Source: Ferruginibacter sp. (GTDB taxonomy: Bacteria > Bacteroidota > Bacteroidia > Chitinophagales > Chitinophagaceae). From it: a DNA stretch of 64,000 nt. Made by a program: the position numbers and the translations under genes. Numbering within the stretch: the first letter of the stretch is position 1; each line of letters opens with the position of its first letter. The notes under the pieces are model-generated. The model did no database searches and was not told where the DNA came from. It saw only the letters and a program-made list of their open reading frames with translations. Positions 44,865 to 50,638 of this stretch are shown piece after piece. The stretch lies in the NCBI GenBank assembly GCA_044342365.1, contig JBIIPY010000002.1, forward strand, positions 34,711 to 98,710, written 5' to 3'.

Positions 44865-45896
44865 CTATAGCTGCAACAATTCTTTTAAATGTGCCGCACT
44901 AGAAATTATCCTTGTATTGGCCTGTAGGTTTTGCTGCAGTTCTTTAATATTATTGATGTCATATTTTATCCTGGTTTCTACCGACGGCGGTTTCTTTCCA
45001 TGCATATAAAAAGATTCATTTGATCCAAAGCTGTGAAATATATTTTGTTGAAGGATTCTTTTCAAAGCCTCCAGCTTTTTTTTCATAGAGTTGTTGTATA
45101 ATTTTAGCAATTGCAAAGAATAGGTTTTTTCGGAGCTGCTTGTTTTATTAATCACATCTGCTTTTTGTTTGATAAACAACATGGCATGAATATCTGCCTT
45201 GTCTTTGGCAGCAGTTAATTCTTTCATCAATTCCTCTTTGCGATAACGGATAGCCTCGTCCTGCTCAAGGTCGGGATGGATGAGTTTAGCCAGTTCTTTG
45301 TATAATTCAGAAATAGATTTTTTCTCCATATCATCTGCCAACTTTTTTTTGGTTTCATTATTTGACCGGCTAAAAGGTTGTTCTCTTGAATAATCGTCAT
45401 CTTCATTTAAATAAGTTTCTTCATCTTCCTCCTGCTGCAATGCAGGCGCTTTTTTCGTTTTTGGAAACAGGCCCAATTGCCAGTTGAGGTAATTATCCAT
45501 TTTATCTTTGGCGGCCTCCAGGTGTACGGCTGCGTCCTGCAGGATAAATATGGCAAATGCCACAAAACTTCTTTCCATGTTTTTAGAAAATTTGTTGGCA
45601 TAAAATATTGCTTCCAGTTTTTCTATAAACAACAGTTGTGTGTGGGCCAGCTCAATTAAAAAGGGCTGTACTTTCGAAAAGAATAACTGCTGGTATTTTT
45701 CATCTTCCATCTTTTGCCGCTCATTTTCCTTTTCCTGTTCCTTCAGTTCTTTAATCAGTTTATTAAAACGCCGCATTTCTTTTTCAAGAGGGGTATCATT
45801 TTTAGAAGCTTTCTTTTGGGTAAGCTGAATGAGCGGCAGTATATCTGCCTGGTCATTTTCCAATTGTTCTGTCATATCTAAATATTTTTTATCCAT
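44865..45896 (-). CDS. Coiled-coil protein with degenerate J-domain-like HPD motif
   Basis: 343-aa ORF with an N-terminal coiled coil, an acidic stretch, and ISELYKELAKLIHPDLEQ...ELMKELTAAK. Confidence 0.75.
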   Translation of the reverse strand: MDKKYLDMTEQLENDQADILPLIQLTQKKASKNDTPLEKEMRRFNKLIKELKEQEKENERQKMEDEKYQQLFFSKVQPFLIELAHTQLLFIEKLEAIFYANKFSKNMERSFVAFAIFILQDAAVHLEAAKDKMDNYLNWQLGLFPKTKKAPALQQEEDEETYLNEDDDYSREQPFSRSNNETKKKLADDMEKKSISELYKELAKLIHPDLEQDEAIRYRKEELMKELTAAKDKADIHAMLFIKQKADVINKTSSSEKTYSLQLLKLYNNSMKKKLEALKRILQQNIFHSFGSNESFYMHGKKPPSVETRIKYDINNIKELQQNLQANTRIISSAAHLKELLQL

Positions 45897-46221
45897 TTAA
45901 GATTGATGATTAGCGAAGTGCAAATCTCGTCAAATTTTAAATTGCTGCCACTCATCATACTTACTTTACCATTGATGAAAGAAATGTTTCCGCCCTTAAC
46001 GGATTTATTCCTACAATTGCGAGCTTCTATATATCTTCGTATTCCAAATTTAAATGGAGCATGCTCCCATATAAAATGTACCATCTTTTCGCAAAGCGAT
46101 TTTTCAATTTTCGCCAATGAGTTTAACTGGCGTCTAATGATTACTATTTACTTGAGTCGCTTTTTTTACAAACTATTTAGGGCAAATTATATTACAGCAC
46201 CATAAAAATTAAACCAGTACA

Positions 46222-46557
46222 ATGAATAAATATAAAATAATATTAACCGGAGTATTCCTTTCTGCTACTATTATTTTTTCATCCTGTGAAGATGAAAAGA
46301 ACGAAGATCTTACCCAAACCGTTAATAAAAACGGATCTGTTGAAACATCTGTAACCGTGGAGCATTTAGACAGCGTGAATGACATACTGGTGACCAAGCA
46401 TGCCGTTTGGCACAAGGGTTCTATCAATAAAACTTTTGAACACAGGGATACTGTGCCTGCCCTTGGATCGGAAAAGACAGCTATAAAAGACGATTTTGGT
46501 AACGATAAAAATGTAGAAGCAAAAAAAGAATACGAGATTTTTATTACGGTGAAGTAG
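46222..46557 (+). CDS. Small hypothetical lipoprotein
   Basis: Lipobox FSSC followed by acidic EDEKNED; the mature part appears beta-rich. Confidence 0.8.
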   Translation: MNKYKIILTGVFLSATIIFSSCEDEKNEDLTQTVNKNGSVETSVTVEHLDSVNDILVTKHAVWHKGSINKTFEHRDTVPALGSEKTAIKDDFGNDKNVEAKKEYEIFITVK

Positions 46558-46603
46558 GAGAAAGCTGATTGGTGAAATCTTCAAAGAGCTACGGAAATTA
46601 GAG

Positions 46604-47007
46604 GTTGAAAAACGTTGAACGGCTTGAACTTCTTGAACCTTGAACCTCTTGAACGTTGAACCTCTTGAAAGTTGAACCTCTTGAACGTTGAACCTCTTGA
46701 ACGTTGAACCTCTTGAACGTTGAACTTCTTGAACGTTGAACCTCTTGAACGTTGAACCTCTTGAACGTTGAACCTCTTGAACGTTGAACTTCTTGAACGT
46801 TGAACCTCTTGAACGTTGAACCTCTTGAACGTTGAACCTCTTGAACGTTGAACCTCTTGAACGTTGAACCTCTTGAACGTTGAACTTCTTGAACGTTGAA
46901 CCTCTTGAACGTTGAACTTCTTGAACGTTGAACTTCTTGAACGTTGAACTTCTTGAACGTTGAACCTCTTGAACGTTGAACCCCTTGAACGTTGAACCCC
47001 TTAAACT
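46604..47007 (+). repeat. 16-bp tandem repeat array (TTGAAC[C/T]TC TTGAACG), ~23 regular units at 46640-47007 with a degenerate left edge
   Basis: Counted by hand. Units 6, 10, 16, 18, 19 and 20 have TTC, units 22-23 have CCC, unit 2 has TTGAAAG. No unique spacers. Confidence 0.97.
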
Positions 47008-47036
47008 TTTGAAACATCTTAAACATTAAAAGACGA

Positions 47037-47381
47037 ATGAAAAAAACAAAAACAATACAACTCATTTTAATTACTGCAGCCCTAGCATCCTGTGCCGAAA
47101 AAAAGAAAGAGCCCGAGTGGGGCAGCGGCAATAAAACTTATGTGAGGGGCGATAGTACCGCACCTTATACCCGCACTCACCACGGCGGCGGAGGCATGCT
47201 GGGTGTGGCGCTATGGTATTATGCCTTCAGGCCCTATGGAGGTTTTAATAATGGAACTTATTCACGGGCTGGATATTATTCCAATGCAATACCACACAAT
47301 GCCAACATAGGAGCCAACGGATTAAAAGGAAAAGCAGTGAGGGGCGGATTTGGAAGAACAGGGGTTAGAGCAGGCAGCTAA
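47037..47381 (+). CDS. Small Gly/Tyr/Arg-rich lipoprotein, YgiB/YjfM-like (RGGFG tail)
   Basis: Lipobox LASC, Gly/Tyr-rich body and C-terminal AVRGGFGRTGVRAGS; directly upstream of a GSP-synthase-like gene, as in E. coli ygiB-ygiC. Confidence 0.75.
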   Translation: MKKTKTIQLILITAALASCAEKKKEPEWGSGNKTYVRGDSTAPYTRTHHGGGGMLGVALWYYAFRPYGGFNNGTYSRAGYYSNAIPHNANIGANGLKGKAVRGGFGRTGVRAGS

Positions 47382-47383
47382 GC

Positions 47384-47616
47384 AGATGTATGATGTTGGA
47401 TGTGCTATGTAGGATTTCCTCCCGTTCGATTAAATTTTTTGTTTACAAATTTTTTAACTGTAAAAAGAAAACAGAAAAATCGGCCCTTATCATGCAAAAG
47501 AAATTTTAAAACCCCTTATACATTTCGAATCATTCATAACATGATGTAGATATTCTCTTTTCATGAATGCTCTTTCATTTTAAAAGAAATCATACATCAC
47601 ATATCATAAATCATCT
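47384..47616. repeat. Inverted degenerate heptad-repeat arms bracketing the intergenic region
   Basis: AGATGTATGATGTTGGATGTGCTATGTAGGATTT (47384-47417) is imperfectly complementary to AAATCATACATCACATATCATAAATCATCT (47587-47616). Confidence 0.55.
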
Positions 47617-47619
47617 ATT

Positions 47620-48750
47620 TTGGAACGGATTAAAACACAACCCAGGAGAAACTGGCAGGCGGAGGTAGAAAAACTGGGTTTTGGATTTCATACCAGTGAC
47701 ATGCCTTATTGGGATGAAACAGCCTACTACCGTTTTAGCATAGACGAAATAAATCATGTAGAAAAAGCAACTGCTACTTTATGGGAGCTTTGCCTTGGAG
47801 CTGTTCAGCATGTTATAGATAACAAATTATACAGCCAGCTCAAGATCCCAGAAAATTTTATTCCCTACATAGAAAAAACATGGGACGAAGAACATCCTTC
47901 TATTTATGGCCGCTTTGACCTTTGCTATAAAAACGGCAAAATAAAAATGCTTGAGTTTAATGCCGATACCCCCACAAGCCTTTACGAAGCAGGCATCGTA
48001 CAGTGGTTTTGGTTGCAGGATCTTGATAAAAACAAGGACCAGTTTAACAGCATACATGAAAAACTGATTGCTTACTGGACCTATTTAAAAGTATACCTGC
48101 AGCCCGGCATACTGCATTTTACCTGCATCAAAGATTCTCTCGAAGATTTGACCAATACAGAATACATGCGTGACTGTGCCTTACAGGCGGGCATTGAAAC
48201 CAAACTGGTATTTACAGATGATATTGGATGGGAACAGGAGAGCGCACAATTTGCAGACATGGAAATGGAACCAATCAAAAATATTTTCAAACTATACCCT
48301 TGGGAGTGGCTGGCTGCAGAGCAGTTTGGCCAGAATATTTTGCTGGATACCAATAAAACATTCTGGATAGAACCTGCATGGAAAATGATTTTATCCAACA
48401 AAGCCATTCTTCCAATACTCTGGCAATTGTATCCCAATTGTGAATACCTGCTTCCTGCTTACTTTGAAGAACATGACCTGAAAGATTATGTAAAAAAACC
48501 AATCTTTTCTCGGGAAGGTTCCAATATTGAAATGGTAAAACATTACGGAACCATTGAAAAAACATCCGGCGAATATGGGGCCGAGGGTTTTATTTATCAG
48601 CAACTTTTTAAGCTACCCGAATTTGATGACAACTATCCCGTCATCGGCAGTTGGATCATAGGACAGGAACCTGCAGGCCTCGGCATCAGGGAAGCAAACG
48701 GTTTGATTACAGATAACAAGAGCAGGTTTGTGCCGCATTTGATTGGTTGA
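47620..48750 (+). CDS. Glutathionylspermidine synthase family ATP-grasp ligase (YgiC/YjfC-like, no amidase domain)
   Basis: TTG start; YGRFD, LEFNADTPTSLYEA, EPAWKMILSNKAILPILW, YVKKPIFSREGSNI and PVIGSWIIG. Confidence 0.93.
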   Translation: MERIKTQPRRNWQAEVEKLGFGFHTSDMPYWDETAYYRFSIDEINHVEKATATLWELCLGAVQHVIDNKLYSQLKIPENFIPYIEKTWDEEHPSIYGRFDLCYKNGKIKMLEFNADTPTSLYEAGIVQWFWLQDLDKNKDQFNSIHEKLIAYWTYLKVYLQPGILHFTCIKDSLEDLTNTEYMRDCALQAGIETKLVFTDDIGWEQESAQFADMEMEPIKNIFKLYPWEWLAAEQFGQNILLDTNKTFWIEPAWKMILSNKAILPILWQLYPNCEYLLPAYFEEHDLKDYVKKPIFSREGSNIEMVKHYGTIEKTSGEYGAEGFIYQQLFKLPEFDDNYPVIGSWIIGQEPAGLGIREANGLITDNKSRFVPHLIG

Positions 48751-48811: not shown

Positions 48812-50638
48812 ATGTTCAGAACGCACACTTGCGGACAATTAAGGATTTCCGATATTAATAGCAATACCACACTAGCGGGTTGGGTACAAACAGTACGTAA
48901 ATTTGGCAGCATCACTTTTGTAGATCTAAGAGACCGTTACGGCATTACCCAACTGCTTTTTTCTGAATCGCTCAATGAACAATTGGAAGCCAATCCACTG
49001 GGCCGTGAGTTTGTTTTACAAGCCACGGGTACCGTAAACGAACGCAGCAACAAAAACGCCAACATCCCCACAGGTGATATAGAAATAGTGGTTACTTCTT
49101 TTAAGATCCTCAACAAATCTGCCGTACCGCCTTTTAAAATTGAAGACGATACAGATGGTGGTGATGACCTGAGAATGAAATACCGTTTCATGGATCTAAG
49201 AAGAAACGCAGTAAAAAAGAATTTAGAATTGCGCTACGCCGTTGGCCGCAGCACCAGAAATTATTTGCATGAGAACCAGTTCATGGATATTGAAACCCCC
49301 TTCCTCATCAAATCTACCCCGGAAGGTGCCAGAGATTTTGTAGTGCCCAGCCGCATGAACCCAGGCCAGTTTTACGCCTTGCCTCAAAGTCCGCAAACAT
49401 TTAAACAACTGCTGATGGTAAGCGGCTACGATCGTTACTATCAAATTGTAAAATGTTTCAGAGACGAAGATCTCCGTGCCGACAGGCAGCCAGAGTTTAC
49501 CCAGATAGATTGTGAAATGGCCTTTGTAGAACAAGAAGATATTCTACAGATGTTTGAAGGATTGGTAAAAAGAATTTTTAAAGATGTAAAAAACATCGAT
49601 TACACCGAACAAGTAGAACGCATGACATGGCAACAAGCCATGTGGACCTATGGCAACGACAAGCCAGACATTCGGTTTGAAATGAAGTTGACCAACCTGA
49701 AATTTCCTGCTCATACTTTTCCAGAACAGGCCGATATATCATCACTTATTACTGGTGTAGATTTTAAAGTATTTGACGAAGCAGAAACGATAATTGCCAT
49801 TGCAGCACCAGGTTGCAGCGAGTACAGTCGCAAACAAACCGACGAACTTACGGAATGGGTTAAACGCCCGCAAGTGGGTATGAAGGGATTGGTATTTGTA
49901 AAATGTAACGCTGATGGTACTTTTAAAAGCAGCGTAGACAAGTTTTACAATGAAGACAAATTAAATGCGATTACTGCGGCTACCAACGCTAAAGCGGGCG
50001 ACTTACTATTAATATTGGCAGGGCCTGAAGAAAGAACCCGCAAAGCTGCCAGCGACCTGCGCATGTACATGGGTACTACACTCGGATTGCGCAAGGCAGC
50101 TGAATTTAAATTGTTGTGGGTATTGGATTTCCCGCTGTTTGAGTATGCCGAAGACAACAACCGTTGGGTGGCTAGGCATCATCCGTTTACAAGCCCCAAA
50201 CCCTCCGACATTGATACGATGATCAACAACAATCCAGTGATAGAAAATGCTGCTGAATATTTAAAACATCCATATGCCAGCATCAAAGCCAATGCTTACG
50301 ATATGGTATTGAATGGCAACGAAATTGGTGGTGGTTCTATCCGGATCTTCCAAAGGGAGTTACAAGAAAAAATGTTTGCAGCTTTGGGCATGGATGCAGC
50401 AGAGCAACAACACAAGTTTGGATTCCTACTGGGCGCTTTCGAATACGGCGCACCCCCACACGGTGGTATAGCCTTTGGTTTCGACAGACTTTGTTCTATT
50501 CTGGGTGGAAGCGAAAGTATCCGAGACTTTATTGCCTTCCCAAAAAACAACAGTGGCAGAGATGTGATGATAGATGCTCCGAGTGAAATAGACCAACAAC
50601 AATTTGATGAGTTACAGATAAAACTGAACCTGAAATAA
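48812..50638 (+). CDS. aspS: Aspartate--tRNA ligase
   Basis: [60 protein letters not shown] and [14 protein letters not shown]. Confidence 0.99.

Follow-up and report, generated by a model that had tools for sequence, protein, structure and literature searches.

The tandem repeat between two lipoprotein genes in a 64,000-nt stretch of Ferruginibacter sp. DNA (the window) is a non-coding, hypervariable array of the bacterial heptamer class. The array was probably derived, by slippage, from one arm of a gene-less hairpin element akin to the intervening sequences (IVS) of 23S rRNA. Its word, its polarity and its placement recur in arrays and hairpins at other operon junctions of the same genome and its relatives, where the loop may hold a gene of family PF05635.

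Analysis of the window with TRF gives a single array with a period of 16, 23.9 copies (a figure that comes from one assembly), 96% matches, no indels and the consensus TTGAACCTCTTGAACG, in agreement with the initial annotation, which had described a 16-bp repeat with a 9+7 unit and an AACGTT palindrome. Counted word by word, the repeat comprises 51 TTGAAC-type words from 46615 to 47024 (48 TTGAAC and three degenerate), and the spacers between them alternate between 1 nt (G in 22) and 3 nt (CTC in 15, TTC in 7, CCC in 2 and GGC in 1). From the upstream stop codon, the intergenic region thus reads as 42 unique nt, AGAGGTTGAA, AAACG, the 48 TTGAAC words, the three degenerate words, 12 A-rich nt and the ATG (Table 1). 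The array ends at 47006, leaving 30 nt before the ATG at 47037, as first described, and the last degenerate word ends 12 nt before this codon. Decay to TTAAAC at the 3' end is also seen in TTGAAC arrays of many genomes and in the arms of relatives, and GGTTGAA is a left-arm word in the relative G010 as well. The exact 16-mer TTGAACCTCTTGAACG occurs 27 times in the 2.96-Mb genome, against about 0.001 expected by chance, and all 27 copies are confined to the focal array and one sister array. The focal array is the top-scoring short-period array of the genome.

Table 1. Features of the focal operon and of related loci in the same genome. Unprefixed positions are those of the window; C-prefixed positions refer to contigs of the same genome (G000).
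Feature	Position	Strand	Basis or remark
111-aa lipoprotein gene (signal peptide and Cys), first of the operon	46222..46557	+	ORF list, translation
Unique left flank of the inserted spacer	46558..46599		Absent from G017 ortholog; no other copy in genome
Spurious 177-aa ORF through the array, not a gene	46598..47131	-	16-residue periodic, low-complexity translation
Vestigial inverted unit AGAGGTTGAA, putative left-arm remnant	46600..46609	+	90% complementary to TTGAACCTCT in every array unit
First word of array, variant TTGAAC-GGC	46615..46623	+	Word table; GGC spacers dominate in short allele L100
Core array, 23.9 copies of TTGAACCTCTTGAACG (one assembly), 9+7 compound unit	46624..47006	+	TRF, sequence, unit table
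Degenerate tail words TTAAAC, TTGAAAC, TTAAAC	47001..47024	+	Sequence
A-rich 12-nt leader ATTAAAAGACGA ahead of start codon	47025..47036	+	Sequence; conserved in all conspecific contigs
114-aa Gly/Tyr/Arg-rich lipoprotein gene, in YgiB position	47037..47381	+	Translation; 70% identical ortholog in G017
YgiC-like ATP-grasp ligase, glutathionylspermidine-synthase family, without amidase domain	47620..48750	+	Pfam PF03738, E = 7e-148
aspS, aspartate--tRNA ligase	48812..50638	+	NCBIfam NF001750, E = 2.5e-233
Array A, (TTGAACCTC)x14	C144:25522-25651		One arm around PF05635 gene; inverted arm at C144:25017-25051
Array B, same 16-mer as focal array, x15.9	C144:27350-27604		Fills DeoC-ALDH1 spacer
PF05635 gene between atpD and atpC	C156:28867-29269		
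PF05635 gene between rfbB and rfbA	C120:3460-3938		
PF05635 gene between era and der	C127:10428-10928		

The array lies between two ORFs and does not code for protein. The initial annotation had noted TGA in all plus-strand frames, and there are 16 stop codons in each of the three; its companion statement that the minus strand has no stops is nearly exact, two frames having none and the third a single stop, which comes from the terminal TTAAAC word. The 177-aa minus-strand ORF has no Pfam match, and its best NCBIfam match is far below threshold (19 bits against a cut-off of 200 bits). We rejected it as a coding repeat: the translation is periodic and belongs to no family, the ORF extends over the beginning of the 114-aa gene, and a 16-bp unit is not divisible by three. 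The ORF is a by-product of the stop-free repeat. With its 7-9-nt words between two ORFs, the array is well described as an expanded heptamer-type intergenic repeat, which is how it had been read at the outset.

Searches for signals in the spacer found no terminator-like site, consistent with the initial remark that no terminator was evident, and no sigma-70-like site; nothing promoter-like was found in or after the array, and an Rfam search of 45500-48000 gave no match at E ≤ 1. Inspection by eye for a promoter of the Bacteroidota type (TTG ... TAnnTTTG) yielded a single 5-of-6 match, AACTTTTG, poorly spaced to any TTG and unconvincing. An ECF-sigma site, which the 16-nt period might have supplied as TGAAC-N15-CGTT, was dropped, the spacing being one short and CGT being absent from the arrays of other genomes. 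A CRISPR was likewise rejected, as the array has no unique spacers of similar length: its units are contiguous, with variable positions of 1 or 3 nt. The spacer as a whole folds better than its shuffles (z = -5.2), exclusively via AACGUU self-pairing, because each 7-nt junction creates an AACGUU that pairs with other units. The 5' left-arm hairpin of the spacer folds no better than chance (z = -0.12). The AACGTT palindrome is not general to TTGAAC arrays, the junction base being C or T in most other genomes.

The focal gap between the two plus-strand lipoprotein genes measures 479 nt. An ortholog of the 114-aa gene is present in one of 30 relatives, G017 of the same genus, and there the gap between the two lipoprotein genes is 5 nt (...GTAAAGTAATCAGCATGAAAAAAAC...). 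The whole 479-nt spacer is therefore a gain of this lineage, within an operon that was compact, and the placement of the repeat within the ligase operon in the initial annotation is borne out. The A-rich leader and 57 nt of unique sequence on the left are part of this gain, which comprises about 96 nt of non-repeat sequence in addition to the array. Neither a PF05635 match nor a remnant of such a gene was found in the focal spacer, and its non-repeat flanks occur nowhere else in the genome. The next spacer of the operon, at 47382-47619, separates the 114-aa gene from the ligase gene. It is 238 nt long, versus roughly 54 nt in G017, and is bounded by a perfect 10-nt inverted repeat (47385-47394 and 47589-47598); the operon may therefore have received another small insertion at this position.

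The array is present in several populations and is polymorphic between them. Twelve contigs of other metagenomes, from lakes and other environments, encode an identical 114-aa protein, and every such contig that reaches upstream, in eight other assemblies, has TTGAAC units at the same site. The order of the terminal units is ...ttc ttc ttc ctc ccc ccc in the focal array, and ...ctc ttc ctc ctc ctc ccc or ...ttc ttc ttc ccc ccc gcc in other samples; in two samples the array is joined directly to ATAAACATT, and in two there is an extra 35-nt tail. A short allele, L100 (2826-3001 of a 12.7-kb Logan contig of SRR24908283), has a spacer of 174 bp with about eight words, rich in GGC spacers. It is not a collapsed repeat, because its every 31-mer is unique. 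Another contig has a spacer of 188 bp. With spacers of 479, 174 and 188 bp and differing unit orders, the initial label of VNTR is a fair one. The ordered C/T variants that had been taken to record stepwise expansion are real; their order differs between samples, and they give no readable stepwise record. These variants reflect ongoing gain, loss and conversion of units, and the GGC spacers of L100 suggest that the 16-mer with CTC and G spacers is the subunit that expanded in the strain of the window. Most short-read contigs start within the array, one scaffold has an N gap there, and the Logan contigs of four runs end at both array edges. Such arrays break short-read assemblies and yield false ORFs, and annotators of Bacteroidota should expect both.

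The genome-wide census of TTGAAC repeats that had been suggested as a check returned two sister arrays, making three in the genome; both lie beyond the window, 54-56 kb upstream on the contig that carries the focal array. Arrays A and B flank an aldehyde dehydrogenase gene, ALDH1, in a minus-strand operon of a DeoC-type aldolase, ALDH1, a PF05635 '23S rRNA intervening-sequence protein' and ALDH2. Read in the direction of transcription, the ALDH1-ALDH2 junction consists of the ALDH1 stop, (GAGGTTCAA)14, the PF05635 gene, four TTGAAC words and the ALDH2 ATG, and the DeoC-ALDH1 junction of the DeoC stop, (CGTTCAAGAGGTTCAA)16, about 175 nt, one sense unit with TTAAAC words and the ALDH1 ATG. Isolated units are found just upstream of both ALDH genes. 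Both sister loci are hairpin-type elements in which the GTTCAA arm comes first and the TTGAAC arm second, one of them with a PF05635 gene in its loop. The focal spacer has before its array only the single inverted unit, compared to both arms at each of the sister loci.

The PF05635 gene with its arms between the two aldehyde dehydrogenase genes (L001 7017-7652, G000:C144:25017-25651, outside the window) has a counterpart in a Chitinophagaceae MAG, L014, which has the same layout with 2-unit arms. Comparison of the two junctions across relatives reveals a series of states. In G033 the genes overlap at both junctions, and in G007 both have a plain spacer, of about 50 nt at DeoC-ALDH1 and about 40 nt at ALDH1-ALDH2. 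G001 has a gene-less spacer with its own inverted ends at each. A PF05635 gene occupies DeoC-ALDH1 in G012, the ALDH1-ALDH2 spacer of which is 94 nt with no PF05635 gene. G010 has a gene-less (GTTTAA)n...(TTAAAC)n hairpin at the former and, at the latter, five tandem hairpin units of about 120 bp followed by a PF05635 gene. L014 has a PF05635 gene at both, with the right arm at ALDH1-ALDH2 being exactly (TTGAACCTCTTGAACG)x2, and our genome has array B with no PF05635 gene at DeoC-ALDH1 and array A, a PF05635 gene and a sense arm at ALDH1-ALDH2. Our DeoC-ALDH1 spacer aligns with that of L014 on both sides of the L014 PF05635 gene (77-79% identity), and array B replaces this gene; the gene-less expanded array and the PF05635-bearing element are therefore alternative states of one site. 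Within one genus, the same operon junction is seen in four states: empty, with a short two-armed hairpin, with a hairpin that holds a PF05635 gene, and with a gene-less array of 16-24 units. The five-unit stretch of G010 (L110 3142-3819, G010:C36), between ALDH1 and the PF05635 gene, is a higher-order repeat of hairpin elements, each unit being a (GTTTAAGG)3 ... (TTAAACNN)n hairpin.

The association of PF05635 genes with such arms extends beyond this operon. Judged from the flanking sequence, all four PF05635 genes of our genome lie between conserved operon partners (atpD-atpC, rfbB-rfbA, era-der and ALDH1-ALDH2), and all four are bracketed by inverted 7-9-nt tandem arms, each with its own word: AGTACTN / CTNAGTA, GGTTGAG / CTCAACCAT, CAGTGGG / CCCACTG-like and GTTCAA / TTGAAC. 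The focal array shares with these elements the insertion between adjacent co-directional genes and the absence from some relatives (G017). Three of the four genes reach z ≥ 6 in flank complementarity; the arms of the fourth, on C120, were seen by eye only, because its computed ORF runs into the (CTCAACCAT)16 arm. Among the five best short-period arrays of the genome, three adjoin PF05635 genes and the other two are array B and the focal array. We then sampled 40 PF05635 genes from 17 related genomes, 39 of them with usable flanks, and compared the 160 nt upstream with the 160 nt downstream. Complementary flanks (z ≥ 4), mostly of 7-9-nt tandem words, were found for 29 of these 39 genes versus 4 of 300 random genes of our genome, one of the four positive control genes being ALDH1 itself. 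Such arms are thus about 50 times as frequent around PF05635 genes as around control genes. An exception is L142 (G034:C1:2623205-2624719), where the PF05635 gene lies between direct, same-orientation GGGCAAT arrays and flank complementarity is z = 0.6. In the literature that we searched, we found no account of systematic arm bracketing of non-rRNA PF05635 genes, nor of the allelic series at the two ALDH junctions.

To place the array in a wider context we used the pattern TTGAAC-N3-TTGAAC-N-TTGAAC-N3-TTGAAC, for which about 0.004 occurrences are expected by chance in 596 Gb. This strict four-word pattern gave 87 stretches in other genomes, nearly all of them Bacteroidota (Cytophagales, Chitinophagales, Bacteroidales, Flavobacteriales and Saprospiraceae); the cultured Ferruginibacter sp. 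HRS2-29 and Terrimonas rubra KCTC 23299 are among the carriers. The pattern gave none in 24 same-genus and 16 same-order representative genomes, in which looser TTAAAC/TTGAAC arms are common. Only five PF05635 ORFs were found in the 87 loci, and most TTGAAC arrays are therefore gene-less. The arrays have a clear polarity: a gene boundary lies within 20 nt of the 3' end of the TTGAAC strand in 67 of 108 evaluable arrays, and within 20 nt of the 5' end in 6 of 108, with median distances to the boundary of 10 nt and 130 nt, respectively. The 67 cases at the 3' end comprise 32 same-strand starts and 35 convergent stops. When one repeat-rich MAG is left out the polarity is 43 versus 14, and by genome it is 21 versus 5 (p = 0.0025). 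The focal array and both sister arrays obey the same rule. A hairpin of fixed arm order (GTTCAA, then TTGAAC) that fills a spacer would give this polarity, and a solo array would therefore be half of such a hairpin.

One Cytophagales MAG, JAAFIN01 (bin16; loci L012-L096), has at least 50 TTGAAC arrays in a single genome, often preceded by a second word family of the CAGGAT / GTCAGGA type. Of its 51 evaluable arrays, 38 have a gene boundary no more than 20 nt from their 3' end. This genome would lend itself well to the study of TTGAAC arrays.

The STRR of cyanobacteria were reportedly described by Mazel and colleagues in 1990, and to our knowledge the heptamer-type class, known since that year, has never been explained. 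The focal array is not an STRR in the strict cyanobacterial sense (STRR1-3 of heterocystous cyanobacteria), its word being TTGAAC and the nearest named contigs being Chitinophagaceae and Ferruginibacter. Together with the run labels, these contigs point to an uncultured freshwater Bacteroidota as the host. The focal array does belong to the broader heptamer class of long simple-sequence repeats (LSSR), as it is built of a head-to-tail 7-9-nt word, is intergenic and non-coding, varies in unit steps and uses a recurrent word with fixed polarity. Heptamers are over-represented in bacteria, and slippage or unequal exchange is the usual explanation of the class (PMC4692102). The published examples resemble the focal array in being tandem 7-9-nt intergenic words that vary in length by unit steps between close strains, in having forward stops in all frames with the array end a few nt before a start codon, and in lying much nearer to one neighbouring gene, whatever its orientation. 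The last of these is described for the GGGAATC repeats of Xanthomonas (PMC4692102), and TAACTGA repeats, which occur in Beggiatoaceae, Cyanobacteria and Bacteroidetes with long arrays in the Bacteroidetes, lie a few nt ahead of start codons and contain stops in every forward frame (PMC4679880). The focal array differs from them, and is new, in its word, its compound 9+7 unit of 16 nt and its unusual length of about 48 words; there are also three arrays in the genome rather than hundreds, and the word is shared with the arms around a PF05635 gene.

Two further systems bear on what such an array may do. RNase III excises the 23S IVS of Coxiella, which carries an S23p ORF and the stem of which contains heptameric repeats that vary between strains (PMC4990558). 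Like the IVS with S23p/PF05635 ORFs in Coxiella and Leptospira (PMC4990558), sister array A and its inverted arm bracket a PF05635 ORF as a stem-loop. The elements described here, however, are found between protein-coding genes of operons rather than within 23S rRNA, the focal array lacks an ORF and all but a trace of a second arm, and RNase III processing is putative. In Haemophilus influenzae, the heptamer hairpin in the 5'-UTR of hmw is cut by RNase III, with expression inverse to repeat number (PMC12721329). The (ATCTTTC)n repeats of hmw1A/hmw2A (PMC12721329) are similar to the focal array in that a heptamer array of variable copy number, capable of forming a long RNA hairpin, precedes a surface-protein gene. 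The polarity of the arms is opposite, however, and the focal array would pair mainly with itself; the effect on expression and the cleavage by RNase III are demonstrated for hmw, whereas the focal array is known here from its sequence.

We propose that the two co-transcribed lipoprotein genes were separated by the insertion of a short hairpin-type element, its arms being of the form (GTTYAA)n ... (TTRAAC)n. Elements of this type sit at operon junctions in this genus, and their loop may or may not hold a PF05635 gene. Replication slippage or unequal recombination may then have expanded the C-richer right arm, which abuts the downstream start codon, to about 24 units; the left arm would have dwindled to one degenerate unit, and the array would keep changing in 16-bp steps between populations. 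As the focal flanks have no other copy in the genome and the spacer holds no PF05635 remnant, descent from an element is argued from the shared 16-mer, the architecture and the polarity. We infer transcription with the operon because the ancestral junction is 5 nt. If so transcribed, the array would lengthen the intercistronic leader by about 0.4 kb of RNA that pairs with itself (AACGUU with AACGUU), and would therefore have only a passive effect downstream, through leader length, leader structure or access of RNase III, rather than act as a dedicated switch. Processing by RNase III is suggested by analogy, because there are two precedents in the Coxiella 23S IVS and H. influenzae hmw.

The main competitor to this origin is an independent microsatellite, in which a chance or motif-derived TTGAAC seed at the junction was expanded by slippage with no historical link to a PF05635 element. 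The unique flanks, the lack of a PF05635 remnant or a clear left arm, the many TTGAAC arrays elsewhere with no PF05635 neighbour and the general attribution of heptamer-class repeats to polymerase slippage (PMC4692102) are all as this would predict. Slippage on a local seed does not explain why non-repeat sequence came in with the array relative to G017, nor why array B and the PF05635 arm of L014 have exactly this compound 16-mer. The polarity and the TTAAAC decay are as in element arms, and the TTGAAC arrays of the genome are all on one contig near the PF05635 element. We therefore consider a microsatellite of independent origin unlikely. A selected contingency or tuning locus, the copy number of which sets expression of the lipoprotein and the ligase via the length or structure of the 5'-UTR or access of RNase III, is less likely again. 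The array does lie directly upstream of a lipoprotein gene and vary between populations, its RNA is predicted to self-pair, hmw offers a precedent (PMC12721329), and a role as post-transcriptional sites has been proposed for the TAACTGA repeats ahead of start codons (PMC4679880). The sister arrays, however, abut stop codons in antisense, where such a role is impossible, and half of the TTGAAC arrays elsewhere abut the stop of a convergent gene and not a start. A dedicated regulatory or contingency role for the focal array is thus possible but unsupported.

We regard as very improbable an array of binding sites, for instance for a dimeric regulator on the near-palindrome TTGAACGTTGAA or for a nucleoid protein. 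The 7-nt junction does create a 12-nt near-palindrome with an AACGTT core, and isolated units stand just upstream of two ALDH genes; yet the C or T at this position in most other genomes abolishes the palindrome, there are only three sites in the genome, and in relatives the architecture persists although the words vary between elements, an argument against a single sequence-specific binder. Least credible of all is an assembly artefact, which the initial annotation had named as grounds for discarding its reading, or a coding repeat in the form of the 177-aa ORF. The array exceeds short-read resolution, and a 69-aa minus-strand ORF appears in one gene caller's annotation of another sample. An artefact is contradicted by the same-site array in eight independent assemblies, with differing unit orders and one short allele, and a coding repeat by the shift of reading frame with each 16-bp unit change and by the overlap of the ORF, which has no family match, with the start of the conserved 114-aa gene.

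The preferred reading of the focal array as an expanded element arm can be extended, more tentatively. The heptamer-type (STRR-like) intergenic repeats, at least those of Bacteroidota, could be the arms of one class of selfish hairpin elements that insert at gene junctions, an idea that may well prove too broad and that we hold with less conviction than the origin proposed for the focal array. The complete form would carry the PF05635 four-helix-bundle gene in its loop, as a 'free-living' counterpart of the 23S rRNA intervening sequences, and arrays of the focal type would be gene-less, one-armed, slippage-expanded remnants. A fixed order of arms, the G-richer before the C-richer, would explain the published polarity towards the nearest gene, and RNase III processing of the stem would be the common molecular activity. 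The association of PF05635 genes with arms offers a concrete, testable origin of heptamer-type repeats, and links them to the RNase III-processed intervening sequences of rRNA.

The genome also has long tandem arrays of 47-50-bp and 190-197-bp units (G000:C94:1-725, C139:3815-4575, C120:21415-22546 and C140:69345-70558). These contain hairpins such as CACCCCGATGGGGTG and GAAGTTGGAGTTATCTCCAACTTC, and are REP-like and unrelated to TTGAAC.
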